Assembly (NCBI GenBank): GCA_044229145.1
Contig: JBGATO010000033.1
Location: forward strand, 1 to 39,387
Reading direction: 5' to 3'
Source of the DNA: Candidatus Eiseniibacteriota bacterium
Lineage (GTDB): Bacteria; Eisenbacteria; RBG-16-71-46; CAZEPH01
DNA length: 39,387 nt
Shown: one piece after another, positions 7,580 through 36,925 of the stretch
How the letters are laid out: each line of letters opens with the position of its first letter
Position numbering within the stretch: the first letter of the stretch is position 1
Made by a program: the position numbers and the translations under genes
The notes under the pieces: model-generated
The model's input: only the letters and a program-made list of their open reading frames with translations
What the model was told of the DNA's origin: nothing
Databases searched by the model: none

Positions 7580-7626
7580 GGGCAAAAAGAGAGAGCCACC
7601 TCAGGAGACCTGAGGCGGCTCTCAAA
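7580..7626 (-). promoter_or_regulatory. Strong hairpin followed by a T-tract on the minus strand, inside the 5' leader of the COG3044 ATPase gene (attenuator/terminator-like)
   Basis: gagagccacctcagg-aga-cctgaggcggctctc forms a 15-bp stem with one A.C mismatch. On the minus strand it is followed by TCTTTTTGCC, ~80 nt upstream of the ATG at 7504. It sits at the edge of a ~700-bp divergent intergenic region of visibly lower GC. Confidence 0.35.
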
Positions 7627-8221
7627 GCATCCCCACACCAAGGCCGGTGGCATGCCGTCTGGAAGGTGCGCAGTTCCGGAGCAACGGACAGTGGCTCGGC
7701 TGGCTACCCACCATGTCGCGGGCATAGCAGGGAAGTTGTGAAGCTGTCCCGTGTTGCGTTGTCCTTCGTGATGCTAGCGCTGTGTTCCGGGATCCGCTCG
7801 AGGCGTCCCGTTGCCCGGCTATCGTGCAGACCGCGTGCCACCGCTGCAGTTCATGATGGCCGGCACGCGCCGAGCCCACGTTTTGCCGCACGTGAGAGGC
7901 GCCGATGCGACCGCTGGTTCCCGGCTCATGCGCTGGAAGTACGCGAGTTAGCCGCGGTGGGTGCGAATTCACACGGGGAGCAGGCGGAGGTGCCGCCGCG
8001 CGGCCGGCGCGGGCCGTGGGGATGGCCCGGCGGGCATTCCGCATCGTGCATGGCGCGCGAGGGGAGGGCGTTTCGCACGGCATCGGCGCCGGAGCACCTC
8101 GTCCATCGGGAAGGATACTTCGCGCCGGCGGCACGACACTTCCACGCGGCGCCTGCCCCACGCGTGCCGGCGCCGGCGTCGCCGGACGCAACGCGGCGCG
8201 CGAGCGGCCGATACCAGAGAC

Positions 8222-13732: not shown

Positions 13733-13835
13733 CGCACCTCGATACCGTAGTCCGCGAGCGTACGGCACCTATGTCGCCGGAGGCCTGTAGACGTTGGCAG
13801 AAATCGCAACAATACGACAATTGCTGGAACGGCAA

Positions 13836-20428: not shown

Positions 20429-21982
20429 TCAGCGGATGACGACGGCACGGCCGCGCGCGCGCGACACGCCATCGTCGATGATCCAGGTGTAGACACCGCT
20501 CGGCACGAGGCGGTCGCCGGCATCGCGCAGCGGCACCGTGTGCACGCTCGACGTCGCGGCGGACAACAGGCCGAGGCTGCGACGCACCACCGTGCGCCCG
20601 CGCACATCGAGCACGCGGCATTCGGCAGGCGCCGTGCGGTCGCTGGTGATGCGGAAGCGCAAGGCGTCGCGCACCCACGGTCCGGCAATCGCCTCGCAGG
20701 CGAAGCCGTGCGCCTCGGTCTCGTGCCGCTCGCCGGCCACCGCGCTGGTGGCGCCGAACATCGTCAACGCACCGTAGACGTCGAGGCGTCCGCTGCCCAA
20801 CTGCCCGGCGAATGCGGTGTTGCCCGGCAGCGCGTCGACGGCCACCGCGGACTGCTCGATGGCGGCCGCGATTTCGTCGCTGGTGCGGGCGGGAGCGAAC
20901 GCGTGCAGCAATGCCGCGGTGCCGGCGACGAACGGCGCCGCGAACGACGTACCGGCGCCCTGCGCGAAACCGCCGTCGCGATACGCCGAGTAGATCCCAA
21001 GCCCCGGCGCGCAGAGATTGGCACCGCTCGAATAATTGGCGAACGGCGCTTTGACGTCGAGGCTGTCGGTGGCGGTGACCGAGAACGCGTGCGTGCCGCG
21101 TGCCGGGAACTCGAGCACCGGCATCGAGTCGTTCCCCGCCGCCGCGATCACGAAGATGCCCTTCTCGTAGGCTTCCTCGATCGCATCCTCGATGCCTTCC
21201 GACTTGCCGCTCATCCCGAGCGAGAGGTTGATCACCGTCGCCTGCGCGTCGATCGCCTCGTAGAGACCCTTCATGATGGCGAACACCGAACCGATGCCCT
21301 CGTCGTCGAGCACGCGAATCGGCATGAGCGTGGCGGCCGGCGCGATACTGTGCACGATGCCCGCCACCATCGTGCCGTGTCCGGCGCCACCATCGACCTG
21401 TCCGTCCAGATTGTCGTCGAGGCCGTTGGCGTCGTCCTGCGGCGCGTCGTCGCCGTCGATGTAGTCGTGGCCGGGCACCAGCGTGCCGGCGAAGAACGGG
21501 TGCGTGAGATCCGCGCCGGTGTCGAGCAGCGCGACCTTGCTGCCGGTGCCCTGCGTCACCGTCAGCGCCAGCGGCAGACGCACGCGCGTGAACGCGCCTT
21601 GGTCACGCACCAGCGTGCTGTCGCCGATCGCGATCACCACGATTTGCCGCCGCGCCTCCGGCGTCTGATTGGCGAAGTTGTAGTCGCAGTAGCGCGAGTC
21701 GGTATCGCCGTCGAGGTCGACGGTCATGCTGTCCTGCAGCGCCGGCGAGTTGAGATGGAGCAGGTAGAGGCGGCGGCTGGGAATCGAGTCGACCACCGTG
21801 GCGTCCCACGTGGCGAGCAACATGGGGAGTGAACCGCCCGAGGTGAGCCGGATGAGGACTTCGTCGACAGGATAGTCGTCGGCGCCCGAGGCGCGCGCCG
21901 GCGAGGCGGCGGCGAGTCCCAGGAAGGCAAGCACGGGTAGGAGGCGCGCGAGGCCGCGCGCGAGCACGTGTCGTCGGGTCAT
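20429..21982 (-). CDS. Secreted S8 (subtilisin-family) serine peptidase with C-terminal FlgD-Ig-like/T9SS-type domain
   Basis: Start at MTRRHVLARGLARLLPVLAFLGLAAASPARASG, with GAGGAGA 6 nt upstream. The ORF-track start at 22843 is an R/S-rich extension. Catalytic triad in canonical D-H-S order: VALLDTGADLTHP / GHGTMVAGIV / GTSFAAPFVAGTAALL. The C-terminus ends SGVYTWIIDDGVSRARGRAVVIR. Confidence 0.8.
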   Translation of the reverse strand: MTRRHVLARGLARLLPVLAFLGLAAASPARASGADDYPVDEVLIRLTSGGSLPMLLATWDATVVDSIPSRRLYLLHLNSPALQDSMTVDLDGDTDSRYCDYNFANQTPEARRQIVVIAIGDSTLVRDQGAFTRVRLPLALTVTQGTGSKVALLDTGADLTHPFFAGTLVPGHDYIDGDDAPQDDANGLDDNLDGQVDGGAGHGTMVAGIVHSIAPAATLMPIRVLDDEGIGSVFAIMKGLYEAIDAQATVINLSLGMSGKSEGIEDAIEEAYEKGIFVIAAAGNDSMPVLEFPARGTHAFSVTATDSLDVKAPFANYSSGANLCAPGLGIYSAYRDGGFAQGAGTSFAAPFVAGTAALLHAFAPARTSDEIAAAIEQSAVAVDALPGNTAFAGQLGSGRLDVYGALTMFGATSAVAGERHETEAHGFACEAIAGPWVRDALRFRITSDRTAPAECRVLDVRGRTVVRRSLGLLSAATSSVHTVPLRDAGDRLVPSGVYTWIIDDGVSRARGRAVVIR

Positions 21983-22115
21983 GATGGTCTCCTCAGAGAG
22001 TATACCCGACGCGGGTTCGGACCCGACAGCCGCCAGGCGGTCCACTGCGTCAGGTGCACCAGGGGAGAGGACGTGGCGGCGAGGTCGGGTCCCCGCCGGT
22101 CGCGTGCGTGTGCGG

Positions 22116-25027
22116 TCATACGACGGCTCCGGGCGCGCCGAGGAAGCTGAACGGTGCCCAGAAGTACGGGTGCGCGTGGGTGGCGCGCACCGCGAGCGCG
22201 GCGTGGCGCAGCGCATCGTCGGCATCGTCGCCGGCGGCGAGGTGACGGTGGAGGTCGCCGGCCAGCGTCGCCGCCGCCGGGTCGTCCACCGGCCACAGCG
22301 AGACGATGAGCCGCCGCGCGCCGCGCGCCAGGAAGCCGCCCGCCAGCCCGAGCACATCGTCGCCGGCGTAGTGGCGGCCGGCGCCGGTTTCGCAGCCCGA
22401 CAGCACGACGAGCTCCGCGTCCAGCGACAGGCCGAGGATCTCGTACAGCGAGACCCAGCGGTCGGCGAACTTGAGCGCGGAGAACAGGGGATTGTCGTCA
22501 CGGAAGCGTCCGTGGGTGGCCAGGTGCAAGAGCCGCGCCTCCGGCGCGTCGCGCAGGAACGCCTCGGCCGTCCACTGCGGCGCGGTGCGCGGTTTCGCGC
22601 TGCGCCACGCCTCGGCGACGGCGTGCAGCTCGGCGGCGATCTGCGGCGCGTGCCGGTCCGCGGCGCCGCCGATCCATGCATCGCGCCGCCGCGACGCGCG
22701 CCTCTCGCGGAGCGCGGCGAACGCGCTGGCGCTCGGCACCGCGGTGACGCGCTGTGTCTCCCATAGCGCGTGCCCTGCGTGCTCGAACGCGCCGAACGGC
22801 AAGCGATGCAGTGGCCCGTGCGGCACGACGACGAGACGGCCATCCTCCGGCAGCGCGCCGAGCGGGGCGATGAGCGCGTCGAACGCCTCGCCGAGCGGCG
22901 CGCGCGCGCTGGCCGCCAGCCGCGCCGCGTGCGTCGCGAGTGCCGCGCCGCCCAAGCGCACGGTGTCGATTTGGAAGGCGAGACGCGCGGCCAGACGCTC
23001 TGCGTCGTGCAGCGTGCACGGCAACTCGATCAACTCGCGGTGGCGGCGATCCGCGCGCACCGCGTGCAGCCGGTCACGCACCGCGAAGTACTCGATCAGG
23101 ACTTCGCCCTCGTGCAACGTGCGCTGCACCTCGGCGAGCGTCCGCACCGGCGCGCCACCGCGCGCGCGTCCCGACGGCGCTTCCTCGCGGGCACGGCGAT
23201 GCAATGTGCCGACCTCGCGCTCCTGCGCGGCCACCCGCGCGCGCAACGTGCGCAGCTGTTCGGTGGACGGTGCGCTCTCCAATTCCTCGCGTTCGAGCCG
23301 CGCGGTGAACCACGCGAGCTTGCGCGTCGCGGCGGCGAGCGCGCGCGTGCCGCGCGCGGGCGGCTGCGCGGCGTCGTCGAGCAAATCGCCGAGCGCGCGC
23401 GCCCGCGCGCCCTCGATCCACGCGAAGGCCCGTGCAGTCGCGCGCGGCGATCGGCCGCCGTCGAGCACCAACGCGACGGCGCGCTCGGCGGCCTGCGCGC
23501 GGTAGGCGCCGAGCGCGTGCTTGTGTTCTTCGCCAGCGAGCGAGGCGCGGATCGTTTCGGCCAATCCGGTGGCGCGTAGGCACCGAGCGCGTGCTTGTGT
23601 TCTTCGCCGGCGAGCGAGGCGCGGATCGTCTCGGCCAATCCGGTGGCGCGCGTGTACGACGCCAGCGCGCGCGCGGCATCGCCGTCGGCCTCGTGGACGC
23701 GCCCGCGCAGCACCGTGCGCTCGAAGTCGGCGACGCGATCCGGCAGCCGCGCCGCGCCGCGCAGGAGCGCGCGGGCCTCGCGCGTGTCGCCGGCATCGAG
23801 CGCGAGTTCGCCGCGCAAGATGCGCGCGTGCGCGGCGCGCGTCGACAGGCCGCGGGCGCGCAGTGCGGCCTCGGCATCGGCGGCACGCGCGCGCGCGGCG
23901 TCGAAGTCGCCGTCCGCCGCGTCGAGACGCGCCAAGTGCACGTCGAGCGCCGCCACGCGCACGTGATTGCCTTCGGCGTGGAGGAACGTGCGCGCGGATT
24001 CCAACGCCTCGCGTGCCTCCGCGTGTGCGCCGGCGCGCTTGAGCGCCACCCCGAGCAGCGTGCGCGCGAGCGCCGCGTCGTAGCGCATGCCCGCCCGCTC
24101 GAAATGCGTCAGCGCCGCGCGCGCCGCGCGCTCGGCGTCGTCGGTCATGTTGAGACGCAGGTAGATTTCGGCGCGCGTCTGTTCGGCGATCGCCGCGAGC
24201 GACTTGTCTTCGGCGTCGAACACGCGGCCGGCGCGCGCGATGGCCGCGAGCGCATCCTGATAGCGCGACTGCAGCGCGTACACGGTCGCGAGGTCGAACT
24301 CGCCCTGCGCGGCAAGCGACCGCCAGCCCATCTCGCCGGCACGCGCGACGGCGGCGCGCAACAAACGCTCCGCCTGCTCCATCGCGTCGAGATTGGTGGC
24401 GACGACGCCTTCGTTGATCTCGAGGCCGACCACCACCGCGTCGCGGCCGCCGACCGCGGTGAGTTCGCGGCGGGCGCGCGCGTAGTAGCGCTTCGCCTCG
24501 GCATAGCGATCCATCGTGAAGCACAGGTTGCCGAGGTTCATGTAGAGGCGGCCGAGATAGGTGCGTTCGCGGTGACGGCGCAGCACGATCTCGGTGCGGC
24601 GGCCGAGCGCCATCGCTTCGTCGAAACGCGAGAGGTACATGAGCGTCGGGATCTCGCCGACGCTGACGCGCGCGGACTCGAGGTCGTCGCCGGTTTCGGC
24701 GTAGAGCCGCACGGTTTCGCGGTAGGTGTCGAGCGCCTCAGCGTAGCGGCCGAGGAAGAGCAGCGACTCGGCCTGCGCGCGCGAGGCCAGCGCGGCGGCG
24801 CGGCCGTCGCCGACGCGTGACTGCAACTTCGCCATGACGCGGGCCACGCGCAGGGCGCGCCGCGCATCGACGCGCACCAGGCGCTGCACGGCGTCGCCGA
24901 GCGCGCGGAAGGTGGCGAACGTGACCCGTGCCGGAGCGGCCGCGACGCATGCGCGAATGCTCCCCCGCTCGGCGATGCGGAGGAGCGATTCGGCCAGCGT
25001 GTCTGTGGCGGAAGCTCGTCGGGGCAT
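22116..25027 (-). pseudogene. TPR-repeat / CHAT-domain (caspase-like) protein gene, reading frame interrupted by a 74-bp tandem duplication. The N-terminal TPR part lies in frame 23576..25027 and the C-terminal CHAT part in frame 22116..23575.
   Basis: N-terminal TPR-like helical repeats (YAEALDTYRETVRLYAETGD, YAEAKRYYARARREL, ...). C-terminal CHAT core ...LLHLATHGRF...VVLSGCETGAG... holds the His/Cys dyad. The two ORF-track ORFs 23096..25027 and 22116..24524 both translate TRATGLAETIRASLAGEEHKHALGAY across the duplicated unit. Deleting one 74-bp copy restores a single ~945-aa ORF. Confidence 0.6.
23502..23649. repeat. 74-bp tandem duplication (2 copies, 71/74 identical) inside the CHAT gene
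   Basis: Copy 1 (23502..23575): gtaggcgccgagcgcgtgcttgtgttcttcgccagcgagcgaggcgcggatcgtttcggccaatccggtggcgc. Copy 2 (23576..23649) differs at 3 positions (g/a, a/g, t/c). All three differences are synonymous in the CHAT frame. 74 is not a multiple of 3. Confidence 0.8.
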
Positions 25028-25090
25028 GGGGTGTCGGCTCCGCCCGGCGGCGCGGGGTCCGTCGCCGGGCTCAGGGACGTCGCGGAGGCG

Positions 25091-25726
25091 CTAGGGCAGC
25101 TCCAAGCCGGGCAACGTCACCTCGGCGCCGGCGGTGCCGACGACGATGGAGTACCGGCCAGGGCCGACCGCGTCGAAGGAGAATTCGCCGGTGGCGTTCG
25201 ACATCGCATCCCTGCCTGCGCCGCCATCGGGGCACAACCGGACGGGCACTTCCTCGACGTGACCATCGGCGGCGAGGATCTGGCCCATCACATCGTACGC
25301 CGCGCGCGTCGTGCCGCGGCTGATGCGCACCGTGTAGCGGTCGTCGTCCCACTCGTAGACGAGCTGGCGGACCGGCGCGACCGCGGCGCTGCGCACACCG
25401 GCCAATGCCGGTGTCGCGCCGGAGTCGAGCAACAACGAGGCGATACGCGCGGCCACCGCTTCGACCTGGGCCACCACCTCGCGCACCGTGTCGGCGCGGC
25501 GGGCGGCGCGCAGACGGCCGAGCGCCGCCTTCACCGTCGCGGCGGGCACCTCGGTCAGTGCGTCACGGCGCAGCAGGGCGAGGCTGTCCCGCACCCGGGC
25601 CGCCGCCGCGTCGCAATCCGCGCAGCCGGGCGACAGATGCGCCGTCACCGCCGCGTGAACCGCCGCGTCCGCCGTGCCGTCGAGGAACGACACCAACTCG
25701 TCTGCTGTCGGGTGCAACCGGCCCAT
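25091..25726 (-). CDS. Anti-sigma factor, ZAS type (HxxxCxxC zinc motif), with C-terminal carboxypeptidase-regulatory-like beta domain
   Basis: ATG preceded by AGGAGG at -12. The GTG at 25765 given by the ORF track is rejected. AHLSPGCADCD is the ZAS signature. C-terminal GEFSFDAVGPGRYSIVVG. Confidence 0.7.
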   Translation of the reverse strand: MGRLHPTADELVSFLDGTADAAVHAAVTAHLSPGCADCDAAAARVRDSLALLRRDALTEVPAATVKAALGRLRAARRADTVREVVAQVEAVAARIASLLLDSGATPALAGVRSAAVAPVRQLVYEWDDDRYTVRISRGTTRAAYDVMGQILAADGHVEEVPVRLCPDGGAGRDAMSNATGEFSFDAVGPGRYSIVVGTAGAEVTLPGLELP

Positions 25727-25829
25727 GAGCGGGACCTCCTGCCGAATCGGAACGTTGGGGCGCACCGTGCGCCGGAGAAGTGTTGCGCCGCGTCAGCCGG
25801 GTGATACATCGCCGGTTAGCGCCGCCGGG

Positions 25830-26411
25830 TCAGCGCTCGTAGCCGCGCAGTTCGAGCGCCGCGCGCAGCGATTCCAGGCAGCGCGCGCGCGTCGGCCCAA
25901 TCGACCCGATGGGGATGCCGAGCTGCTCCACGACGTCCTGATAGGCGAGCGGGGGATCGGCGATATAGAGCGCCCGCAGCAGGTCGCGGCAGCGCGGCCG
26001 GATGTCGTCGAGCGCTTCGTGCAACAGCTGACCGCGTTGGAGCGCCTCCAGAACGTCTGACGCAAGTGCAGTAACATCAACGACTTCCGAGCCAGTGTCG
26101 GGGTCGTCGAGGGTCACTTCCGGGCGGCGCTTCCGCATGTAATAGAGCGCCTGCCGCCGTGACACGCTGACCAGCCACGGCACCAGCCGCGATACGTCGC
26201 GCAGTGTCCCGAGCTTCTCGTACAGGGCGACCACCGTGAGCTGGAACACCTCGTCCGCGTCGCCGTACGCGCAGCCCGATTTCAAGATGCTGGAATACAA
26301 GAGGTTACCGTAGCGGCGCAGGAACTCGCCCCACGCCGCGTTCTGGCCGTCGAGGCAGGCAGCGACGAGATCTTCCACCGACGACTGTGGGGCGATGGGC
26401 GCGTGGGTCAT
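25830..26411 (-). CDS. ECF (group IV) RNA polymerase sigma-70 factor
   Basis: 193 aa. Region 2 FQLTVVALYEKLGTLRDVSRLVPWLVSVSRRQALYYMRKR. Region 4 ...ALYIADPPLAYQDVVEQLGIPIGSIGPTRARCLESLRAAL is the HTH. It is followed by the anti-sigma gene on the same strand. Confidence 0.85.
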   Translation of the reverse strand: MTHAPIAPQSSVEDLVAACLDGQNAAWGEFLRRYGNLLYSSILKSGCAYGDADEVFQLTVVALYEKLGTLRDVSRLVPWLVSVSRRQALYYMRKRRPEVTLDDPDTGSEVVDVTALASDVLEALQRGQLLHEALDDIRPRCRDLLRALYIADPPLAYQDVVEQLGIPIGSIGPTRARCLESLRAALELRGYER

Positions 26412-26624
26412 GGGACCGGACACTGTCTCCGAAGGCTGACGAATGGCGTCGAGTATCGCAGTCGCCCGGCGCCCGCGGCAATGCTCCAGCCCAACCACCG
26501 GGGCAATCCCCGCCCGCCGGGCGTCGCCCGCGGGGCGAAAGTGCGTGAAACTGGCCCGGCCTTGCGCCAAGATCGGGCGGTTGCCCCGGGGCGGGGCGGC
26601 CACATGGACGGGAGGAGCGAGCGG

Positions 26625-27743
26625 ATGCGACGTGCGGTGCGACGGTGGGCGTGGGGATGCGCGGGTCTGCTGCTGGCGATGGCGCCGGCGGCGCGGGCGC
26701 AGGTGTCGCACGAGGAATTGAACGCGCGGATGCCGTTCGCGCTCGGCGGCTCGCTCGCCGTGGATCTCTATGAGCCGTACACCGTCTACGCGAACTCCGT
26801 CCCGCTCCGCGGCGTCATGCGCCTGCACGCGCTCACGCTGACCGCCGACAAGGACGGCGAGTGGGGCGGCGCCCACGCCGAACTACGCGCCCGCGACGCC
26901 AAGCCGCGCAGGTTCTACTCTAGCAACGTGTGGCTCGAGGAAGCCTATCTCTACGGCCGTCTCGGACAGTCGGTGTTCAAGGCCGGTTCCGTGAAGCACC
27001 AGATCGGTCTGCCCGACGAGACGCTCTACGGCACCATCCTCGAACACGACGGCATCTCCAACGACGCCGACTATGGCATCAGCGCCGAAGGCACGGTGCG
27101 CTACGGTGACCACCTCACCTTCACCCGGGCGCTCCAGTACTTCATCAGCGAGAACGGGATCAACCGCGCGTTCGACGACAGCTTGGGCGTCTGGAAGCGG
27201 GATGGCGAGAGCTCGCAGTCGGCGCACGAGCAGCGCGGCTGGTTCCTGCGCGCGGCGCCCGAATGGACGCGCGGGAATCTTGCCGTCGCACCCGGAGTCA
27301 CCGCGTCGACGCAGCGCGTCGAGTTGGATCGGGGAGGCAGCGTGCGCGAGCCGCACGAAACCGTGATGTGGGGCGGCGATCTCCGGGTGCGCGCCGGCCA
27401 CGGCATGCGCCGCGTGCAGGTGGCCGCGCAGGTCCTCGGCCGCAATGCGCGCGGCTGGGCGGAGTACGATTGGCGGGCCGTGCCGTTCACCTACGCCAAC
27501 GTCCGCTACACCGACGCCAGCCTCACGCTCGGCTCCGACGCGGCGTGGCTGCGCTACGGCTACGCGCGCAAGACGTTCCGGCGCGCCGGCACGCACGAGG
27601 CGCAGCACCAGATCGGCCTGCACATTCCGATGGGGAAGACCGCGTCGCTGGCTGGCGAATACGTGATCTACCGGCAGTTCACGCCGTCGACGCGCACCAC
27701 GCTCGAGCGCGCGCTGCTGCTGCGCGCCACCGCAGGCTTCTAA
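26625..27743 (+). CDS. Outer-membrane beta-barrel (porin-like) protein, first gene of the porin/permease/ATPase unit
   Basis: ATG preceded by GGGAGGAG. Signal peptide MRRAVRRWAWGCAGLLLAMAPAARAQ. C-terminal ...LLRATAGF ends in an aromatic. The body has alternating-polarity strands rich in Y/W/G. Confidence 0.55.
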   Translation: MRRAVRRWAWGCAGLLLAMAPAARAQVSHEELNARMPFALGGSLAVDLYEPYTVYANSVPLRGVMRLHALTLTADKDGEWGGAHAELRARDAKPRRFYSSNVWLEEAYLYGRLGQSVFKAGSVKHQIGLPDETLYGTILEHDGISNDADYGISAEGTVRYGDHLTFTRALQYFISENGINRAFDDSLGVWKRDGESSQSAHEQRGWFLRAAPEWTRGNLAVAPGVTASTQRVELDRGGSVREPHETVMWGGDLRVRAGHGMRRVQVAAQVLGRNARGWAEYDWRAVPFTYANVRYTDASLTLGSDAAWLRYGYARKTFRRAGTHEAQHQIGLHIPMGKTASLAGEYVIYRQFTPSTRTTLERALLLRATAGF

Positions 27744-27753
27744 CCGCACGACG

Positions 27754-28689
27754 ATGGCGAGCGTCCGCCCGATCCCCGCGCTGTGGACGACGCCGCAGGT
27801 GCGCGCGTTCCGCGACGGCTCGCCGGCATTCGGCGTCGCGCTCGCGGCGCCGTTCCTGACGCTGTGGATCGCGCTGTTCGCCTTGCCGCTGGCGTGGGCC
27901 GCGTGGGAGTCGCGGCAGGTGCCGGGCGGCGCGTTGGCGCGCTTCACCGTCCACCTGTGGCCCGGTGTGCCGGTGGCGGGGGGCGTGCTCGATGCCGGAT
28001 TCGGCATCGTCGCGATTACCGCCGTGGCGATGACGCTTGGTGTGTGCGCGGGCGTCCCGGCTGCCTATGGCGCGGCGCGGCACCGGTTCGCGGGTGCGCG
28101 TGGCGTCGCGGTGGCGGCGTTGCTGCCGCTCGCGGTGCCGACGCCGGTACTCGCGGTGGTGCTGAGCGCGGCGTTGCGGCTGCGCGGTTTCCAGTGGCCG
28201 GCGTGGATCGCGGCGGCGGCGCTGGCGAACGTCGCGCTCGTGGTCTGGTGCACGCGCGCGGCGCTGCGGCACGCCGCGTTGCGGCCGCTCGAGGATGCGG
28301 CGGCGGCATGCGGCCTGACGCCGGCCGCGCGTTTCGTCGAGATCGCCTTGCCGACGCTGGCGCCGCCGCTCGGCGCGGCGCTGGTGGCGACGGCCGCGTT
28401 GACGGCGAGCGAACTCGCGCTCGCCACCGCGCTCGGGCACGCGTGGGCGACGGCGTTCGCCGAGGCCGCGCGCGCGCTGCAGCTTGCCGGACCGTCGGCG
28501 GTGCCGCCGGCCGGTGTGCCGGCCGCGGCGGCGGTGCGCGGGAGCGCCGCGTTCGCGCTGCACGCCCCGCCGGTGTGGACGGTGGGGCTGGCGCTCGCCA
28601 CGCCGGCGGCGTTGCGCCTCCTGTGCGTCGCCGCGTGGGCGCGGCAGGCGCGCCGCGCACCGGCGGCGACGCCGTGGGGGATCGTCTGA
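27754..28689 (+). CDS. ABC transporter permease (binding-protein-dependent CysT/ModB-like inner-membrane component)
   Basis: Multiple TM helices. EAA-loop motif EDAAAACGLTPAARFVEIALPTLAPP (compare EEAAxxLGASxWQxFxxVxLP). The stop overlaps the next start (TGATG). Confidence 0.75.
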   Translation: MASVRPIPALWTTPQVRAFRDGSPAFGVALAAPFLTLWIALFALPLAWAAWESRQVPGGALARFTVHLWPGVPVAGGVLDAGFGIVAITAVAMTLGVCAGVPAAYGAARHRFAGARGVAVAALLPLAVPTPVLAVVLSAALRLRGFQWPAWIAAAALANVALVVWCTRAALRHAALRPLEDAAAACGLTPAARFVEIALPTLAPPLGAALVATAALTASELALATALGHAWATAFAEAARALQLAGPSAVPPAGVPAAAAVRGSAAFALHAPPVWTVGLALATPAALRLLCVAAWARQARRAPAATPWGIV

Positions 28690-29825
28690 TGCTGCAACTC
28701 GTGCACGTCACGGTGGGCGCGCCCGGCGCGCCGGTGGTCGACGACGTCAACTTGCTCGTCGCCCCCGCGTACGTCTGCGGCTTGGTCGGCCCGGCCGGCT
28801 CCGGCAAGAGCATGTTGCTGCGCGCCATCGTCGGGCTCGAACCGCTGACCGCCGGCAAGGTGCTGTTCGAGCGCGACGACCTCACGCCGCTGGCGCCGGA
28901 GGTGCGTCCGGTGAGCGCTGCGTTGTGGCCGCCGGTGCTGTTCCCGCACTTGAGCGTCGAGGAGAACGTCGCCTTCGCGCTGCCCGGCCACGCGCTGTCC
29001 GCGCACGAACGCGACGAGCGCATTCGCCCGGTGCTGGCGGAACTCGGGCTCGAGCGATTGCGCGAACGCGTGCCGTCGACGCTGAGCGCGACGGAGGCCG
29101 CGACGGTGGCAGTGGCGCGCGCAATGGTGCGCGAGGCGCCGGTGCTCTTGCTCGACGATCCATGGTGCATGCGCGCGCCGCGCGATCGCGAACGGCTCGC
29201 CCGCGCACTCTACCGCTGGGCCGAGGAGAAGCACTGCGCCGTGCTCTACGCCACCGCCGACGTGCAGGGCGCGCTCGGCGTCACCGATCAGATCGCGGTG
29301 CTGCGCGACGGCCGCCTCGAACAAGACGGCGAACCACGCGAGGTGGTGCGCACGCCGGCCAGCGAGTTCGTCGCGACGTACGTCGCCGATGCCGTCGTGT
29401 GCGATGCGACGTTGCGGCCGTTGCCGCGCGGCGGTTGGCGCATCGAACTGCCGTTCGGCGACCTACAGGCCGACACGCTCGACGGTGCCGAGCGCCTCAC
29501 CCGCCACGCCGTGGTGCGCGTCGCCGTGCGTCCCGACGCCGTCACGCTCGCCGGCCCGCGCGAAACCGCCGACGCCGCCGGCTTCATCCGCGACTATGAT
29601 TTCGCCGGCGATCACTGGCGCGCCCAAGTCGAAGTCGCCGAGGGCTTCTGCGTGCCGGTGCGCCTGCCGCTGGCGATCGATCCGGCGATTGGCGCGGAGT
29701 TGCGGCTGCGGCTGCACGCCGATGGTCTCGCGGTGGTCGGCCGCGAAGCCAGCGAGCCCGAGCTGCCGCCAAACGTCATTCCGCTGCCGATGGAACGCTG
29801 GCGCGCCCCGCGCCGCGAGTCGTAG
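28689..29825 (+). CDS. ABC transporter ATP-binding subunit with a TOBE-like C-terminal domain. The nucleotide-binding domain is catalytically degenerate: only Walker A is canonical.
   Basis: Walker A GPAGSGKS is intact. Q-loop Gln is replaced (VSAALWPPVLFPHLSV versus VGFVFQHYALF). Signature LSATEAATVAVARAM instead of LSGGQ. Walker B VLLLDDPW, so the catalytic Glu becomes Asp. D-loop MRA instead of ALD. H-loop YATAD, so His becomes Ala. Confidence 0.8.
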   Translation: MLQLVHVTVGAPGAPVVDDVNLLVAPAYVCGLVGPAGSGKSMLLRAIVGLEPLTAGKVLFERDDLTPLAPEVRPVSAALWPPVLFPHLSVEENVAFALPGHALSAHERDERIRPVLAELGLERLRERVPSTLSATEAATVAVARAMVREAPVLLLDDPWCMRAPRDRERLARALYRWAEEKHCAVLYATADVQGALGVTDQIAVLRDGRLEQDGEPREVVRTPASEFVATYVADAVVCDATLRPLPRGGWRIELPFGDLQADTLDGAERLTRHAVVRVAVRPDAVTLAGPRETADAAGFIRDYDFAGDHWRAQVEVAEGFCVPVRLPLAIDPAIGAELRLRLHADGLAVVGREASEPELPPNVIPLPMERWRAPRRES

Positions 29826-29887
29826 ACCCGCCGACGCCCTCCGGCGTACTTGCCCACGCGGCACTACTGTGTTGTAGTCGGGCCATC

Positions 29888-32406
29888 ATGCTCCCGCGCC
29901 CCGTGATCCTGCGCTGTGCCGCGCTCGCCCTCTGCCTGTGGTCCTCGAACTCCCACGCCGCGTGGCGCGATGACCTCGTGCGTCCCGGACTCGACCAGCC
30001 GGCCGATCGTCTGGTCGCCTATCGCGGCGGCGTCGTCGCGGCGGGCGACTTCACGCACGCTGACGGCCAGCCGGTGCCGCACCTCGCGTGGTGGAAGGAC
30101 GGACGCTGGCGGACGCTCGGCGGCGGCTGGTCGTTCGTGGGGGCGAGTTCCACCACGTCGTGGGCGTGGCAGGTGCGACGCATGGTGGTGTGGCACGACG
30201 AACTCGTGCTCGCCGGCAACTTCGCCTTGCGCACCGCCGAGGGCGACACGTTGCAATCCCTGGCGGCATTCGACGGCACGCGCTGGCACGGCCTCGGCGT
30301 GCTGAGCGCGCCGCCGCTCACCGGCGCGATCCCGCCGAGCGACACCCTCTACTACGCACTCGACCGCGAGATCTTCGACGCCTGCGTGTGGGGCGATAGG
30401 TTGGTGGTGGGCGGCCGCGACATCGTGCTCGCGGCCGACACGCTACCGGAGCGCCTCGCGGCGTGGGACGGCGCGCGGTGGACGGCGCTCGCGCTGCCGG
30501 ACGATGTCGGCTACGCGGTCGGTCTCGCCGCGACATCGCGCGAACTCGGCGTGATGTGCGGATATGCCTACGGCTCCAGCGCCGGCGACGCGACACTCGT
30601 GACGCTGGACGGCGCGGGCGCGCATCGCGTCGCGCCTCGCATGTGGTACGCCTCGCAGCCCGTCGCCTACCACGATTCTCTCTGGTGTGCCAGCGAGCAG
30701 CAGGTCGAGTTCCACGGCCCGTACATCACCGTCCTCCACCGCCTGGGCGCGAGCGGCCTCGATAGCGTGGCTTTCGTGTCGCAATCCCTCGGCACGCCTT
30801 CTCTCTTCGCCCTCCACGACCGCTTGGTGCTCGGCGGCGGCTTCTACGGGCCGGCCAGTTGTGCGTCGTGCGCGGCGTTCCCTCGCGCGCTCGCGTGGAG
30901 CGCCGCCGGCCTCGCGCCATTTCCGCCGAGCGGCTTCGAGGTGGATCTCGAACATCGCGGCGGCGTTCTGGACGCCGACGGGCACGTGTTCGTCGCGGGC
31001 GGTCAGTTGTCGCTGCGCGGCGACGTCTTCTTCGGCGAACTGCAGGGCGGCGACATCGTCATGGCGACGGCGGTGCCGGGTGGCGCCGGCCGGGGATCGC
31101 CGGTGCTCGCGCTGCACGCCACCGCGGAGCGCCTGTGGGCGGGCGAACTCGGGCACGCGACGTGGTGGGACGGCGCCGGATGGCGGTTCGCCAGGGGCGC
31201 TCCGGCGCCGGGCAGCGCCACGATGGCCAGCACGGAGGCGCCCACGGCGCGCGGCATGGTGCACGCTTTCGACGACGGCAGCGTGGTGCGCAGCACCGCA
31301 TGGCCCGCGACCGCCTCGGGCGACGGCGTGCGCGACGACGCGGAGTACGCCGCGTTCGATGACGCAGGTCGCGGTTGGTGCCGCTCGATCCGCGCGGCGC
31401 GGTGTGGCGCCAGGGCGGCGCTTCATCGGCGCTCGGCGGCCGCTCGCGCCTCACGGCAGGCGGCGGCGTGCGCTTGGGCAGCGTCGCAGTGTGGCGCGAC
31501 GGCCGGGTCGATCCGCTCGGCGGCGGCATGGAGGCGGACGGCGGCGCGCATCCGTGGGTCGCGGCGCTCGTCGCGCGGCACGACACGCTGATCGCCGGCG
31601 GCTGGTTTGCGCGCGCCGGTGGCGTCGCGGCGCACGGCATCGCGCGGTGGGACGGCGCGGCGTGGCATCCGCTCGGCAGCGGCGTCGCAGGTGACAGCGC
31701 GCGCGTCGAGGCCTTGCTCGACTGGCGCGGCGGGCTGGTGGCGGCGGGCGCGTTCGCGAGCGCCGGCGGCGTGGCCGCGGCGAACATCGCGGTGTGGGAC
31801 GGACGCGGCTGGTCGCCGCTCGGCGCCGGCTTCGACGGTCCGGTGTACGCGCTCACCGAATACCGCGGCGAAGTGATCGCCGCCGGCGATTTCACGCACA
31901 GCGGCGCGACGCCGGTGCGCGGCGTGGCGCGCTGGCGCGGCGGCGCGTGGCTTGCGCTCGACGACGCGGGCGGCGGCGTCAGCGGCGGCGCGGTGCGCGC
32001 GCTCGCCACCTGGCGCGGCGCGCTGTGGCTGGGCGGTGAGTTCACCGCCGTCGTCGACCACGAGGCCGCGCAGCTCTCGAGCTACATCGCGCGCTGGCGC
32101 GACGACGATCTCGCCGGCGACGACCTGCCGCCACGCCGCGCGCCACGCATCGTCGCGCTGAGCGGCCTGCCGACGCAGCGCATCTCGCGCGTCACCTACG
32201 ACCTGCCACAAGCCGGCATCGTGCGCATCGCGCTCTACGACATCGCGGGGCGACGGGCGCACGAGATCGCCCACGCGTTCCAATCGCCCGGCCCGCACAC
32301 CGCCGAGTGGCGCGCCGACGCGGCGGGGCTCACCTCCGGCGTCTATCGCCTGGTGATCGACGCGGACGGCATGCAGACGGCACGCGCCGTGGTGGTGGTG
32401 CGATGA
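29888..32406 (+). CDS. Secreted beta-propeller-like repeat protein (repeats of the ...AGGxFxxAGGVAAxxIAxWDGxxWxxLGxG type) with C-terminal FlgD-Ig-like/T9SS-type domain. Probable 1-nt frameshift near 31378.
   Basis: Signal peptide MLPRPVILRCAALALCLWSSNSHA. The repeat pattern continues seamlessly from the frame of ORF 29888..31591 (...AAFDDAGRGW) into the frame of ORF 31375..32406 (VPLDPRGAVW...) if one nucleotide is added at ggttgg|tgccg. The 29888 frame turns into R/A-rich junk until its stop at 31591. The C-terminus ends SGVYRLVIDADGMQTARAVVVVR. Confidence 0.6.
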
Positions 32407-34769
32407 GGGCGCGCAGGGCGATCGCCGCGTGTGTCATCGCCGCGGGCGCGTGCGCCGCCGCCGCGCAGGCGGCGCCGCGCTGGGAGCCGGTGCTCGACGA
32501 TCCGGTGCCGGTGAGCCGCTTCAGGGATGGCACGGTGCTGCGCGACACGCTGTACGTGTGCGGTCCGTTCGACCACGTCGCGGGCGGCGAGAGCGGGCCG
32601 GTGGCGGCATTCGACGGTGTGCGGTGGTCGGGCGCCGCGCGCGGTCTGCCACCGAGCGCGATTGGGCTCGGCGTGTGGCGGGACGACCTCGTGGTGGCGG
32701 TGCCGGTTGCGCACGGCGATTCGACGCAAATCTGGCGCCGCGCCGCTGGCGCGTGGACGCCGCTCGGCGGCGCGTTGCCCGGCTACATCGCGACGCTTGC
32801 CGCAGTCGGCGACACGCTCTATGCCGGCGGCCGCGCGCCCGCGGGGTTCCGCGCGATGCCGCCACTCGCGCTTCATGCGTGGACCGGCGCGGCGTGGGCG
32901 CCACGCGGCGGCGACCTCACCGGCGACGTCCGCGCGATCGCCTCGTTCCACGACCACCTCTACATTGCGGGATCGCTCGGCGGCCCCGAGGGCTTCGAAA
33001 CCGCCGGCGTCGCGCGCCGTGACGGCGCCACCTGGACGCTCGAACCCGGCCTGGTCGAAGGCCGCGCGCTCGCGGTGGCCGACGGGCGCCTCTGGTTGCT
33101 GGGCGAACTCTTGCTCGACGCGTCCGAGTACGCACCGGCCGATCTGGTGACGAGCACCGACGGCTCGACGTGGCAGGGCGCTGGCCTCGAAACCGTTCGT
33201 TACTGGGGCATCGAGCTTCCCCCACCGCGCGGCGGTCTCGTCGCGCTGCACGACACACTCGTCGCGTGGCTGCCGAGCGGTGTGGCGATGCGCCCGCCGC
33301 ACGGTGCGTGGCGCTCGCTCGCCGCGCATCAGTCGAACTCCGACCGCCAGGTCCTCGCCGCGCTGCGCGGCCAGATCCTGCTCGGGTCGATCATGGCCGG
33401 CGGCGCGTACGTGACGTTGGCGCGGCTGCGGTGGCCCGCCGGCGATGGCGGCGCACAGCCCGAGCCGGTGTCCGAACTGCCCGCGTCATTCCACGGCGCG
33501 CCGTTGTGCGGACTCGCCGTGCACGACGGCCTGCTGTTTTACGAAACGATGTACGGCGGCTCCGGCGCGTTCGACGGCCGGCGCCGCGTGATAGAGTCCA
33601 CACGCCCCATCGGCACGTTCTACGGATTGCGCGGCACGCTCGCCGAGATCGCGGGCGACCTCTACGCCGCGCGCCGCGTGTCCAGCGACGAAGACGATGG
33701 CCACGTCTCCGATGCCGGAATCTGGCGCGCCGGCGACGACGGCGACGCGCCCGATTGGCGCCTGCTGCCGCACACACCCACCGAGCCGCCGCTGCGCGGC
33801 TACGTCAACGACTTCGCCGGATGGAATGGCGGCGTGGCAGCCGGTGGCGCGATCTGGATCGGCCCGCGCGGCGACGCCGCGGTCGCCTGGCACGATGCCA
33901 CCGGCTGGCACGCGCTCGGCGGCGGCTTCGGCGACAGCTTCAACGCAAGCGTCTACGCGCTCGCCGTCTATCGTGGCGACCTCTACGCCGGCGGGCGCTT
34001 CACCTCCATCGGCGGCACGCCGCGCGCCGGCATCGCACGCTGGGACGGCGTTGCATGGCAGGACGTCGGCGGCGGCATCGACGGCGATGTCGAAGTCCTG
34101 CACGTCTTTGGCGATCGCCTGATTGCTGGCGGACGATTCAGCACGGCCGGCGGCGCGCCCGCGTCCAGCATCGCCGCGTGGGACGGCGCACGATGGTCGA
34201 CGCTCCCCGGCGGCACGCTCAGCGGCCGCGTGTGGGCGCTCGCCGACTTCGACGGCGACCTCATCGCCGGCGGCAGCATGCAGCTGGCCACGCCGCGCGA
34301 CACCACGCTCGGCATCGCCCGCTTCCACGACGGCGCGTGGCGGAGCATGGGCGGAGGCCTCAACGGCTCGGTGCGCGCGCTGGCGGTCTATGGCTCCGCG
34401 CTCTATGCCGGCGGCGAGTTCACCGACTCCCAAGCCAACGTCGACGGCGTGCTGCGGCGATGGACCGCGGACGGCGGCATCGCGGACGGCTTCACGCCGT
34501 CGCTGCGCGCGTCGGGCGACATGTCGCTGCGTGGCGCGGTGCGCGTCGCGTACTTCCTGCCACGTCCGGCGCAGACGCGCGTCCGCGTGTGCGATGTGCG
34601 TGGCCGCGTCGTCGCCACGCTCGACGACGGCAGGCGCGACACCGGGCAGCACACGGTGGAATGGGATCCACGCACGCAGGTAGGAGGTCCGCCTGCGTCC
34701 GGCGTCTACTCGATCGTCTTGTCCGCCGAAGGACGCACGTGGGCGCGCCGCGTGGTGTGGATGCGATGA
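32403..34769 (+). CDS. Secreted beta-propeller-like repeat protein, paralogue of the preceding gene, with C-terminal FlgD-Ig-like/T9SS-type domain
   Basis: The ATG overlaps the upstream stop (ATGA). Signal peptide MRARRAIAACVIAAGACAAAAQAAP. Repeats GGRFTSIGGTPRAGIARWDGVAWQDVGGG / GGRFSTAGGAPASSIAAWDGARWSTLPGG. The C-terminus ends SGVYSIVLSAEGRTWARRVVWMR. Confidence 0.75.
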   Translation: MRARRAIAACVIAAGACAAAAQAAPRWEPVLDDPVPVSRFRDGTVLRDTLYVCGPFDHVAGGESGPVAAFDGVRWSGAARGLPPSAIGLGVWRDDLVVAVPVAHGDSTQIWRRAAGAWTPLGGALPGYIATLAAVGDTLYAGGRAPAGFRAMPPLALHAWTGAAWAPRGGDLTGDVRAIASFHDHLYIAGSLGGPEGFETAGVARRDGATWTLEPGLVEGRALAVADGRLWLLGELLLDASEYAPADLVTSTDGSTWQGAGLETVRYWGIELPPPRGGLVALHDTLVAWLPSGVAMRPPHGAWRSLAAHQSNSDRQVLAALRGQILLGSIMAGGAYVTLARLRWPAGDGGAQPEPVSELPASFHGAPLCGLAVHDGLLFYETMYGGSGAFDGRRRVIESTRPIGTFYGLRGTLAEIAGDLYAARRVSSDEDDGHVSDAGIWRAGDDGDAPDWRLLPHTPTEPPLRGYVNDFAGWNGGVAAGGAIWIGPRGDAAVAWHDATGWHALGGGFGDSFNASVYALAVYRGDLYAGGRFTSIGGTPRAGIARWDGVAWQDVGGGIDGDVEVLHVFGDRLIAGGRFSTAGGAPASSIAAWDGARWSTLPGGTLSGRVWALADFDGDLIAGGSMQLATPRDTTLGIARFHDGAWRSMGGGLNGSVRALAVYGSALYAGGEFTDSQANVDGVLRRWTADGGIADGFTPSLRASGDMSLRGAVRVAYFLPRPAQTRVRVCDVRGRVVATLDDGRRDTGQHTVEWDPRTQVGGPPASGVYSIVLSAEGRTWARRVVWMR

Positions 34770-34922: not shown

Positions 34923-35729
34923 CTAGTAATCCCGCTTCCGGAACGCCGCCATCGCCCCGAGCACGCACGCGACGCCGAACGCCGCCGAGGTCACGATCGC
35001 GAACCACGGCACGGCGCCCTTGCCGGTCATCAGCACCGAGATGCCGTCCTCGATTTCGTACGGCTTCGGCAGGATGACGTAGAGCACGTGCACGCCCTGG
35101 CGCCACAGAACGTTGTCGAACAGTTGGCCGAGCACGTCGTGGAAGCGCAACGTCGACGACAGCAGCAACACGCCGAAGCCGAGCAACCCGCTGAGGCCGC
35201 TCGAACCGGTGAAGATGTTGGCGAGCGTCAGCATCGAGAGGTAGACGCACACGTTGAGCATCGCCGGCGCGAGCGCCGCGAACAGCCGCGCGTCCCACAC
35301 GCCGACCCGCGCGCCAGCCACCACGAAGATGAGCGCCAGCGTGACGACGAGCGCCGCGCCCGCCGCCACCGCGTGTCCGGTGTAGCGCGCGAGCATCAGC
35401 AGCCAGCGCGGCACCGGCTTCGACAGATAGACTTCCGCGGTGCCCTTGGTGAGCACCGGCGTCATCACGTCGCTCATGCCGAAGAGCGTGAACAGCGCGA
35501 CCGCCTTCGCGACGAACACGGCGAGGTTGGGCAGCAGCATCTTCGCCATCTGCTCACCGCCGCTGGCGGTCATGCGCTGGCCGTTGATGGCGATGTGCAT
35601 GCTGCTCGACTGGCCGAGCATGAACCATTCGACCGCCAACACGCCGAGCGTGACGATGGCGTAGAGGTACAGGATGCTCGACGCGCGGATCTCGAGCAGC
35701 GTGTCGCGGACCAGGGCCTCGAATTTCAT
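34923..35729 (-). CDS. ABC-2 family transporter permease (GldF/NatB-like)
   Basis: 268 aa with 6 predicted TM helices. ATG preceded by GGGAGGTG. The start overlaps the ATPase stop (ATGA). Confidence 0.75.
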   Translation of the reverse strand: MKFEALVRDTLLEIRASSILYLYAIVTLGVLAVEWFMLGQSSSMHIAINGQRMTASGGEQMAKMLLPNLAVFVAKAVALFTLFGMSDVMTPVLTKGTAEVYLSKPVPRWLLMLARYTGHAVAAGAALVVTLALIFVVAGARVGVWDARLFAALAPAMLNVCVYLSMLTLANIFTGSSGLSGLLGFGVLLLSSTLRFHDVLGQLFDNVLWRQGVHVLYVILPKPYEIEDGISVLMTGKGAVPWFAIVTSAAFGVACVLGAMAAFRKRDY

Positions 35730-36709
35730 GCCGCACCTCCCGCCGGCGGCGTCGCCGACATGCTGCCGCCCACCGGCGCGGTGCCGCCGGAGGTGACGAG
35801 CTGCATGAACACGTCCTCGAGGCTGGTGCGCCGCGGCGAGAGCGCCACCAGCGACACGCCGGCGCCGCGCAACGCGTCGATCACCGCGTTGATGTGATCC
35901 GGCTCCGGCAAGCGCACCACGAGGCCCTCGCCGGTGGCGTCCGCCGCGAAGCCGCGCTCGCGCAGGAACGCCGCGTGCAAGTTGAGGTCGCCCGCCGCTT
36001 GCACGACGTACTCGGTGCGCATCGTCGTCAGTTCGTCGACCGCGCCTTCGGTGACCATGCGGCCGCGCGACAGGACGGCGACGCGATCGCACACGCGCTC
36101 GACCTCGCTCAGCAAGTGCGAGTTGACGAACACCGTCACGCCTTGCTGCTTGAGTTCGAGGACGAGGTCGCGGATTTCGACACGGCCGACTGGATCCACG
36201 CCGTCGGTGGGCTCGTCGAGCAACACGAGGCGCGGGCGCGCCATCAGCGCGGCGGCCAAGCCGGTGCGCTGCATCATGCCCTTCGAGAACTTCTTCACCG
36301 GCGTGTTCGCCCACTCGTTCATGTGGACGCGGTCGAGCAGGACGCGGGCGCGGTCGCGGCGTTCGGCCGCAGGCATGTCGGCGAGCGCGCCGCTCAGGTC
36401 GAGCAGTTGCGTCGGCGTGAGATGCTGCGGGAAGCGGTGGCTCTCGGGCAGATAGCCCACCACCTGCCGCGCGCGATAGTCGCTGACCGGCCGCCCGAAC
36501 AGCTCGGCGCGGCCGCGCGTCGCGTGGGTGACGCCGAGCAGGATCTTGATGAGCGTGGTCTTGCCGGCACCGTTGGGGCCGAGCAGACCGAACACGGTGC
36601 CTTCGGGCACCGCGAGGGTGAGTTCTTCGAGGGCGCGAACCGGCTCGGCGCGCAAACCGCGCGCGTAGTGCTTGGTGAGCTGGTCCGCCTGCAAGGCGGC
36701 GACGGGCAC
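35726..36709 (-). CDS. ABC transporter ATP-binding protein (ABC-2/NatA/GldA-like), all catalytic motifs intact
   Basis: GTG start with GAGGA at -12. Walker A GPNGAGKTT. Q-loop region IGYLPE. Signature FSKGMMQR. Walker B LVLLDEPT. H-loop NSHLL. Confidence 0.8.
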   Translation of the reverse strand: MPVAALQADQLTKHYARGLRAEPVRALEELTLAVPEGTVFGLLGPNGAGKTTLIKILLGVTHATRGRAELFGRPVSDYRARQVVGYLPESHRFPQHLTPTQLLDLSGALADMPAAERRDRARVLLDRVHMNEWANTPVKKFSKGMMQRTGLAAALMARPRLVLLDEPTDGVDPVGRVEIRDLVLELKQQGVTVFVNSHLLSEVERVCDRVAVLSRGRMVTEGAVDELTTMRTEYVVQAAGDLNLHAAFLRERGFAADATGEGLVVRLPEPDHINAVIDALRGAGVSLVALSPRRTSLEDVFMQLVTSGGTAPVGGSMSATPPAGGAA

Positions 36710-36925
36710 GAGGCGATCCTCAGGTCGACAGGCGGCGGCACGGACAGCAAGGCGGGAACTGTAGCCGAACCCGCTGCCAAACGCAGCGGTGCCGCAAGAG
36801 GTTGCGCCGGTGCGCCTGCCGAGGCGGGTGACGTGGCTGGGCGGACTGTGCCACAATGGGCTCCGGCGGGATCCCCCACACACGTTGAACCCCGACGGCC
36901 TCATCTCCCCGGCCGAGGACGACCC

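Follow-up and report, generated by a model that had tools for sequence, protein, structure and literature searches.

A degenerate importer-type ABC nucleotide-binding domain under purifying selection in Candidatus Eisenbacteria, predicted to have lost ATP hydrolysis

The 39,387-nucleotide contig JBGATO010000033.1 of a Candidatus Eiseniibacteriota bacterium (assembly GCA_044229145.1), the whole of which we call the window, carries at 28689..29825 (+) a gene for a 378-residue nucleotide-binding domain (NBD) protein that consists of a MalK/PotA/CysA-type ATP-binding cassette (ABC) domain, a TOBE regulatory domain and a disordered C-terminal tail. We propose, with a probability of roughly 0.55, that this NBD is peculiar to the Candidatus Eisenbacteria lineage and derived from the MalK/PotA/CysA group, has turned into a pseudo-ATPase, is held under purifying selection, and acts by binding as a gate, regulator or sensor. 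The parts of this proposal differ in strength. It is very probable that the NBD is under selection, docked to its permease and non-hydrolytic, and the further step to a homodimer with a hydrolysis-independent gate or sensor role comes close to an even chance.

The catalytic motifs of the NBD were located by a phmmer search against the PDB sequences, in which residues 3-242 aligned to Escherichia coli PotA (8zx1/8y5f) over 240 residues. Because this alignment is gapless, the register of the motifs is fixed. The Walker A motif, or P-loop, is intact (GPAGSGKS, 28788..28811, +; GPSGCGKT in PotA), and its residues are invariant in the orthologues except for an A/T difference at position 36. At the Q-loop position the Gln is replaced by Trp80 (28926..28928, +), and ALWPPVLFPH stands where PotA reads VFQSYALFPH; W80-P81-P82 is invariant across all four orthologues, and the groove LFPHLSV (L84-V90) for docking to the transmembrane domain (TMD) is retained downstream of W80. 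The ABC signature is LSATE rather than LSGGQ (29082..29096, +), with the next three residues changed from QQR to AAT, i.e., LSGGQQQR has become LSATEAAT in the window and LSAAEAAA in the orthologues. Walker B and the D-loop (VLLLDDPWCMRA, 29142..29177, +) begin with VLLLDD where PotA has LLLLDE, so that the catalytic Glu is Asp157 while the Mg-binding D156 is kept, and continue with PWCMRA in place of SLSALD (SALD to CMRA). LLLDDPWCM is fixed in the orthologues, and the final two residues vary, being RA in the window and LS in the orthologues. The switch His of the H-loop is Ala190 (29256..29258, +; FVTHDQ in PotA, YATADV here) and is Gln in the three orthologues.

These are the five changes (Q-loop, LSATE, Walker-B Asp, D-loop and H-loop Ala) that the initial annotation had read by hand from the sequence. 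All of them were borne out by the PotA alignment; the manual register was correct, and the positions of the catalytic Gln, Glu and His are indeed occupied by other residues. We found a sixth loss that had gone unlisted, given that the adenine-stacking aromatic residue of the A-loop, F27 in PotA, corresponds to A11 in the segment VTVGAPG (28707..28727, +). This column is F in the consensus of 59 homologues, and the orthologues read RSAHG in this region. A register error was considered as a source of the apparent losses and was rejected on the basis of the gapless PotA alignment, the agreement of multiple alignments and the superposition of the structure model on both MalK and PotA.

The NBD stands apart from its nearest canonical relatives at these positions. 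The 119 best matches from 5.8 billion proteins, which share at most 43% identity with it, all have the Q-loop Gln and the Walker-B Glu, and essentially all have the signature SGG, the D-loop Asp and the switch His, with minor known variants. In 59 canonical homologues, 66 positions reach a conservation of 85% or more, and these we took as family-conserved; 42 of them are kept in the window NBD and 24 are lost. The whole P-loop, R45, L84-V90, S133, the post-signature helix, D156, P158, T189 and D191 are among those kept, and Q80, G134, G135, Q138, R139, E157, L162, D163, H190 and E194 are among those lost. Read against this alignment, it is the catalytic and ATP-sandwich elements that are hit, whereas the phosphate-binding loop, the core of the fold and the coupling-helix groove are spared. 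Amino-acid drift driven by GC content was also considered and rejected: the losses are clustered in functional motifs, and the ABC-2-type NBD in the same window (35726-37129, −), which served as a control, retains LLDEP and the switch His.

Its fold and architecture make the NBD a member of the MalK/PotA/CysA group. Its Pfam matches are ABC_tran (E = 1.1e-22; 81.5 bits, above the cut-off of 25) and TOBE_2 (E = 4.1e-8; 33.7 bits, above the cut-off of 21), the latter at residues 278-349 (29520..29735, +), where the AlphaFold2 model shows a β-domain with a predicted local distance difference test score (pLDDT) of >90. The model of the NBD as a whole has a pLDDT of 92 and a predicted template modeling score of 0.88 and is confident to residue 354. 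A Foldseek search with the full-length model placed MalK 1q12, PotA 8zx1, CysA 1z47 and FbpC 9j4r on top, with template modeling scores of 0.80-0.86. Among the NCBIfam models, those for PotA, PhnT2, WtpC, UgpC, CysA, FbpC and MalK rank first, yet the scores remain far below the cut-offs (124-166 bits for the PotA, PhnT2, WtpC, UgpC and CysA models versus 343-502), the best being TIGR01187 potA with 165.7 bits versus 355.6, and none of the named equivalogs PotA, CysA, UgpC, WtpC, PhnT, MalK and ModC was reached at its NCBIfam cut-off. The comparison with CysA/ModC-type NBDs made in the initial annotation therefore holds in part, given that CysA is among the nearest characterized relatives, but these are PotA, MalK, CysA and FbpC and not specifically the CysA/ModC type. 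The NBD shares with MalK, PotA, CysA and FbpC the ABC_tran plus TOBE_2 architecture, the fold, Walker A, the Walker-B Asp, the residues that dock the EAA motif and an adjoining BPD_transp_1 permease. Unlike them, it is without the Q-loop Gln, the signature GG, the catalytic Glu, the D-loop Asp, the H-loop His and the A-loop aromatic residue. Five of the sequence features by which a catalytically competent ABC NBD is recognized are absent from it.

In the clustered database, the NBD and the permease encoded next to it each form a cluster of one. When 1.84 billion representatives were searched exhaustively with HMMER, the best score was 169 bits, and identity among the best 150 did not go above 43%. 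The relative nearest by identity, P0243, lies on a contig too short to show its gene neighborhood. Three relatives of the permease (P0122, P0123 and P0124), 53-72% identical to it, lie on metagenomic contigs L001, L002 and L003, where the gene order of the window is repeated. A scan of GTDB found one locus, in Candidatus Eisenbacteria bacterium ant_bin.648 (L004, identical with L002; 85% identity), a scan of the JGI metagenomes found one further locus (L084), and relatives of the gene upstream of the permease are present on L092, L093 and L094. NBD orthologues are readable over 235 residues in L001, 311 residues in L002 and, with frameshifts, 243 residues in L084. No complete NBD orthologue was found by word-indexed search, exhaustive HMMER, the GTDB scan or the JGI scan, the GTDB Eisenbacteria locus being cut by the contig end and the JGI locus being frameshifted, and the comparison of NBD orthologues stops before the C-terminal 67 residues. 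All three orthologues read GPTGSGKS, AALWPPVLFPH, LSAAEAAA, VLLLDDPWCMLS and LYATQDV. Because the same degenerate motifs occur in all three, the dead state is ancestral to the orthologue group.

We then compared the three genes of the operon with their orthologues, using dN/dS by the Nei-Gojobori method and a Fisher test against neutrality. The dN/dS of the NBD was 0.12-0.22 (dS, 0.42-0.55; Fisher p ≤5e-15), and that of its TOBE part, residues 236-311 versus L002, was 0.15 (p = 2e-6). The permease gave 0.30-0.47 (p ≤6e-7) and the upstream gene, which resembles that of an outer-membrane protein, 0.32-0.58 (p ≤2e-5), so that constraint is strongest on the NBD. The initial annotation had argued from the very high GC content at third codon positions (GC3) that the gene is not decaying. 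GC3 alone is insufficient for this, but the conclusion stands on the identical degenerate motifs found on three other contigs and on the dN/dS values, and the comparison with orthologues, which had been named there as a check, gave no sign of relaxed selection. A pseudogene was rejected by dN/dS together with the conservation in orthologues.

The variation within the family has a structure of its own. Only 2 of 39 retained canonical positions vary, compared to 7 of 24 lost ones (Fisher p = 0.02) and a background of 36 of 172. The lost positions that vary include the second signature Gly (G135), R139, L162 and D163 of the D-loop, and H190, and those fixed in the family include W80, A134 and D157-M161. 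This is the pattern expected if constraint had been released where catalysis needed it, with the fold, the P-loop, the permease interface and the newly acquired features WPP and DDPWCM under selection.

In light of these data, we regard it as highly improbable that the operon is a decaying relic whose NBD is merely collecting inactivating mutations. The permease and the outer-membrane-protein-like product are very divergent, to the extent that Pfam barely detects the permease and misses that of L001; L084 has frameshifts in all three genes, and other frameshifted genes are apparent in the window. However, the open reading frame (ORF) at 28689-29825 (+) is uninterrupted over 378 codons plus the stop, and its GC content by codon position, 0.79/0.50/0.89, is a clear coding signature for a contig of ~70% GC. 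The purifying selection on the NBD also speaks against a relic, as do the degenerate motifs, which are the same or one to two residues apart across a divergence of dS ~0.4-0.55, and the NBD, for which the AlphaFold2 model is confident, is the best conserved of the three genes. The frameshifts of L084 are scattered within highly conserved coding sequence, as assembly errors would be.

Two further observations concern these comparisons. The L084 locus (JGI Ga0137411_1313116, 1-2533) has several frameshifts per gene, while the protein segments it encodes share 78-88% identity with those of the window, and assembly or sequencing error is a more likely source of the frameshifts than pseudogenization in that lineage. 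In addition, for the same contig pairs (window versus L001 and L002), the proportion of synonymous differences (pS) is lower in the NBD (0.32-0.39) than in the permease and the upstream gene (0.36-0.56), which could come from a stronger codon or GC3 constraint or from recombination.

The gene organization places the NBD with a single permease. The permease gene (27754..28689, +) encodes a highly divergent type-I importer permease of 311 residues with one BPD_transp_1 domain (Pfam E = 7.7e-8; 32.7 bits, above the cut-off of 26.4). NCBIfam adds only weak ModB/WtpB matches at ~1e-4, and a profile of the permease orthologues searched against the PDB found SugB at 3e-5, the nearest solved relatives being SugB and PotC. 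The ATG of the NBD gene shares one base with the permease stop codon (TGATG, within CTGATGC), and GGGGGA lies ~8 nucleotides upstream of this start codon. The spacing is alike in the window, L001 and L002, with a gap of 5-10 nucleotides followed by an overlap of 1 nucleotide. The operon's first gene (26625..27743, +) encodes a 372-residue secreted, β-rich protein with a signal peptide (MRRAVRRWAWGCAGLLLAMAPAARA/Q) and a C terminus, LLLRATAGF, that resembles an outer-membrane β-signal. This protein had no match in Pfam, NCBIfam or the PDB sequences, and its orthologues (54-60% identity) stand directly 5' of the permease in L001, L002, L003, L092, L093 and L094. From its sequence features, we consider it a putative outer-membrane protein with a barrel fold.

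The docking surface between permease and NBD is preserved on both sides. The permease has the EAA coupling motif EDAAAACGLTPAARFVEIALP of an NBD-docking helix (28291..28353, +), which aligns with the EAA loop of SugB and in which E180, A182-A184, G187, I197 and L199-P200 are invariant in four orthologues. In the maltose system, the EAA Glu forms a salt bridge with a conserved Arg of MalK in the docking cleft (PMC6906923). Judged from its spacing after Walker A, this Arg would correspond to R45 of the NBD (28821-28823, +), which is kept and is the presumed partner of the EAA glutamate. Both docking partners, E180 of the permease and R45 of the NBD, are therefore present.

No substrate-binding protein (SBP) domain was detected among the window ORFs tested (39 kb) or among the called genes of L002 and L092, in contrast to the MalK, PotA, CysA and FbpC systems, and there was no second BPD_transp_1 permease or importer-type NBD in the 39-kb window, L002 or L092. 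The window encodes just one more ABC NBD of the transporter type, and this one is part of an ABC-2 system that brings its own ABC-2 permease. Rfam gave no riboswitch or other RNA at the gathering threshold anywhere in the window and none at E ≤1 in the leader, a promoter and terminator scan of 26200-30200 gave no consensus promoter and no terminator, and models of defense systems matched the locus only through generic ABC ATPase similarity.

In canonical ABC proteins, the Walker-B Glu is the general base, the His is the "linchpin," the Gln serves the Mg ion and the water, and the signature and D-loop of the opposite monomer complete each site (PMC7756269, PMC3971661, PMC6906923). Changes of the Walker-B Glu to Asp, of the H-loop and of the signature define non-hydrolytic, "degenerate" sites (PMC7756269, PMC3971661). 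Judged by this enzymology and the motif losses, a homodimer of the window NBD would be unable to hydrolyze ATP, and a canonical closed ATP sandwich is probably impossible as well, with the signature GG changed to AT or AA and the D-loop changed. The initial annotation had stated that a homodimer could probably bind but not hydrolyze ATP. The loss of hydrolysis agrees with the missing catalytic residues, as reasoned from ABC enzymology, and the P-loop is kept; the claim of binding, however, has become weaker now that the A-loop residue is seen to be gone, and a base specificity of any P-loop ligand is doubtful without the A-loop.

We considered that the NBD might instead be a slow or unconventional ATPase, in which Asp157 serves as the general base and other residues replace the Gln, the His and the signature Gly, so that the operon still encodes an ATP-driven importer. 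The retention of Walker A, the Walker-B Asp and S133 of the signature would fit this, as would the finding that ABCB1 with both Walker-B Glu residues mutated has an equal residual ATPase activity whether the replacement is Asp, Gln or Ala (PMC7756269). Still, five or six independent catalytic elements are altered together, and Glu to Asp is the hallmark of non-hydrolytic degenerate sites, the longer distance to the γ-phosphate in TM287/288 being thought to block hydrolysis (PMC3971661). The H-loop (Ala/Gln), the second signature position and the D-loop vary within the family, which is unexpected for residues in catalytic use, and no SBP gene that could stimulate the ATPase of an importer was found in the window, L002 or L092. 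We therefore hold residual ATP-driven import to be improbable.

The substitutions themselves have counterparts in the degenerate sites of TAP1/2, TM287/288, MRP1, CFTR and BSEP, where the Walker-B Glu is likewise changed to Asp, the H-loop His to Gln or another residue, and the signature to a non-consensus form (PMC7756269, PMC3971661). Such sites in exporters bind ATP stably and have a structural or regulatory role; degenerate sites have been described as a feature of exporters, with one working site always left (PMC7756269, PMC3971661). In all of these proteins the changes are split over two NBDs and one consensus site drives transport, whereas in the window all changes are found in the operon's single NBD, and a homodimer would have both sites dead. 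Searches of open-access text turned up no account of a type-I importer NBD that is degenerate throughout.

This difference bears on a second alternative, raised in the initial annotation alongside a repurposing as sensor or regulator, in which the degenerate NBD forms a heterodimer with a canonical NBD encoded elsewhere, possibly a "multitask" NBD like MsmX or MsiK, which hydrolyzes the ATP. Sharing of NBDs by several importers is established (PMC7658222), asymmetric sites are common in ABC proteins (PMC7756269, PMC3971661), and tandem-NBD relatives with the classical split degeneracy (P0125 and P0128) are among the best-scoring matches. Nevertheless, one polypeptide bears both the degenerate Walker-B, Q-loop and H-loop and the degenerate signature and D-loop, so that a heterodimer would keep no consensus site. 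Three independent loci each pair a single permease gene with a single NBD gene, the stop codon of the first overlapping the start codon of the second; this suggests a symmetric complex of two permeases and two NBDs. No second importer-type NBD is encoded within the 39 kb or beside the orthologues. Two non-identical NBDs that share one degenerate and one consensus site were not what we found; each operon in the window, L001 and L002 has a single NBD gene. A partner NBD is accordingly unlikely in our assessment, although less so than residual hydrolysis.

Other single importer-type NBDs with several catalytic motifs replaced were seen among the 150 best representatives. P0210 (L087) has LSAAQ, LLLDDP, Gly in the D-loop and His replaced by Gln, and is an orphan beside a histidine kinase. 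P0133 (L088-L090), with Gln replaced by Glu, LSAEQ and His replaced by Ser, and P0212 (L091), with the Walker-A Lys replaced by Asn, LSDFQ, Glu replaced by Gln and His replaced by Ser, are each the sole NBD of an NBD-permease-permease operon. These three resemble the window NBD in being single importer-type NBDs with several catalytic motifs replaced, but they come from unrelated lineages, are 33-35% identical and have other operon layouts, and none combines the loss of all motifs with a perfect P-loop as the window NBD does. The tandem-NBD proteins P0125 and P0128 have a degenerate Walker-B and H-loop in NBD1 and a degenerate signature in NBD2; a special kinship of the window NBD to the degenerate half of such proteins was rejected, as all are 31-35% identical. 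Dead or half-dead importer NBDs may form a wider, undescribed class.

Returning to the pseudo-ATPase that we favor, the following mechanism can be sketched. The degenerate NBD dimer would still be seated on a permease homodimer. With no hydrolysis and probably no closed sandwich, the module would run no alternating-access pump cycle. It would work by binding instead: the P-loop could take up a nucleotide or a ligand resembling phosphate, or the TOBE domain could receive an effector or a protein. In this way the module might gate a passive route through the permease, or regulate it, or, as a membrane sensor, signal the state of that route. In its fullest and more tentative form, the proposal is that an importer module of Eisenbacteria, made up of a permease homodimer and a MalK-like NBD homodimer, has become independent of ATP hydrolysis. 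Both sites would be dead. A dedicated outer-membrane protein would supply a passive channel or facilitator, and the NBD and TOBE domains would serve only as the gate of that channel or facilitator, operated by a ligand or a nucleotide; alternatively, the module would be a membrane sensor. It would then stand as a bacterial equivalent of CFTR and SUR on an importer fold, with not one catalytic site surviving.

Known systems offer partial parallels to such a module. ModBC and WtpBC have the same layout of a single-permease homodimer with a single TOBE-bearing NBD, and they are subject to trans-inhibition through the C-terminal domain. In NCBIfam the permease matches ModB and WtpB weakly, as the NBD does WtpC and ModC, but this similarity is marginal, at E ~1e-4 and with scores >160 bits under the cut-offs, and, unlike ModBC and WtpBC, the window module has dead catalytic motifs and no ModA/WtpA-like binding protein was found. 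CFTR and SUR are ABC machines of TMDs and NBDs that no longer pump and in which nucleotide binding is used for gating or regulation. They differ from the window module in their exporter fold and in having one consensus site that is hydrolysis competent or responsive to MgADP, and a channel or regulatory role of the window module is a proposal.

Several points weigh against the pseudo-ATPase proposal. The loss of ATPase activity is deduced from motifs, nucleotide binding by the NBD is uncertain with the A-loop aromatic residue missing, and the role as a gate or sensor is suggested by analogy. The invariance of the P-loop is weak evidence by itself, given that the orthologues are 84-91% identical. 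The family is present on about seven metagenomic contigs, with the NBD on four and complete only in the window, and L084 is frameshifted in all three operon genes. The AlphaFold2 model of the upstream protein, built from three sequences, is unusable (pLDDT, 30), and the similarity of the permease to SugB, PotC and ModB is weak and gives no substrate. Finally, the genome beyond the 39-kb window may encode a canonical partner for the NBD, or an SBP at some distance from the operon.

ABC importers are the textbook example of uptake driven by ATP hydrolysis, and, if the proposal is true, the scaffold of a type-I importer can be put to new use with no turnover of ATP. The operon would then offer a natural system with all sites dead, in which the contributions of NBD binding, dimer contacts and the TOBE domain to permease gating could be separated. 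There would also be a consequence for annotation, as under the label "ABC transporter ATP-binding protein" metabolic reconstructions of these uncultured soil and sediment bacteria would count an active importer that does not exist.

The genes around the operon were examined as well. Beside it lies a divergent block (20432-26420, −; L092, 2113-7998) encoding an S8 peptidase, a TPR-CHAT protein, an anti-sigma-like protein with CarboxypepD_reg, and an ECF sigma factor. A regulatory link from this sigma factor block to the operon is possible. The ECF/CHAT/S8 block is missing in L002, where the neighbors are adh_short and P5C reductase genes (13839-15397 in the window). Within the block, at 22116-25027 (−), the TPR part (frame 23096-25027) and the CHAT part (frame 22116-24524; Pfam E = 7.6e-53) lie in different, overlapping frames, and the counterpart on L092 is a single TPR-CHAT protein of 949 residues. 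The split suggests a frameshift near 23400-23560, which may be genuine or an artifact of the assembly.

Downstream of the NBD gene, ORFs at 29888-31591 and 31375-32406 (both +) overlap by 217 nucleotides in different frames and encode secreted repeat proteins without a family match; a frameshift may have divided a single gene into the two. The first begins 62 nucleotides past the NBD stop codon, and the two could be cotranscribed with the operon. In the ABC-2 system (34923-37129, −), an ABC2_membrane_2 permease comes after a DrrA-type NBD whose Walker-B Glu and switch His are canonical. The ORF of this NBD has an N-terminal extension of ~160 residues, probably from a start that was set wrongly, and overlaps the 5' part of a 775-residue ORF on the plus strand (36789-39116) that has no family match. 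A non-transporter ATPase of the ABC class is encoded at 5726-7585 (−), with PF09818 ABC_ATPase, ABC_N and an MRB1590 C-terminal domain (E = 1e-117). Large secreted proteins with a FlgD_ig-like C-terminal domain are encoded at 3092-5725, 7961-11224, 11303-13768 and 32307-34769; these comprise an FG-GAP repeat protein, a CARDB/fn3 protein, a C25 gingipain-like peptidase and a repeat protein, and the shared domain may serve in this lineage as a characteristic tag for sorting or anchoring.

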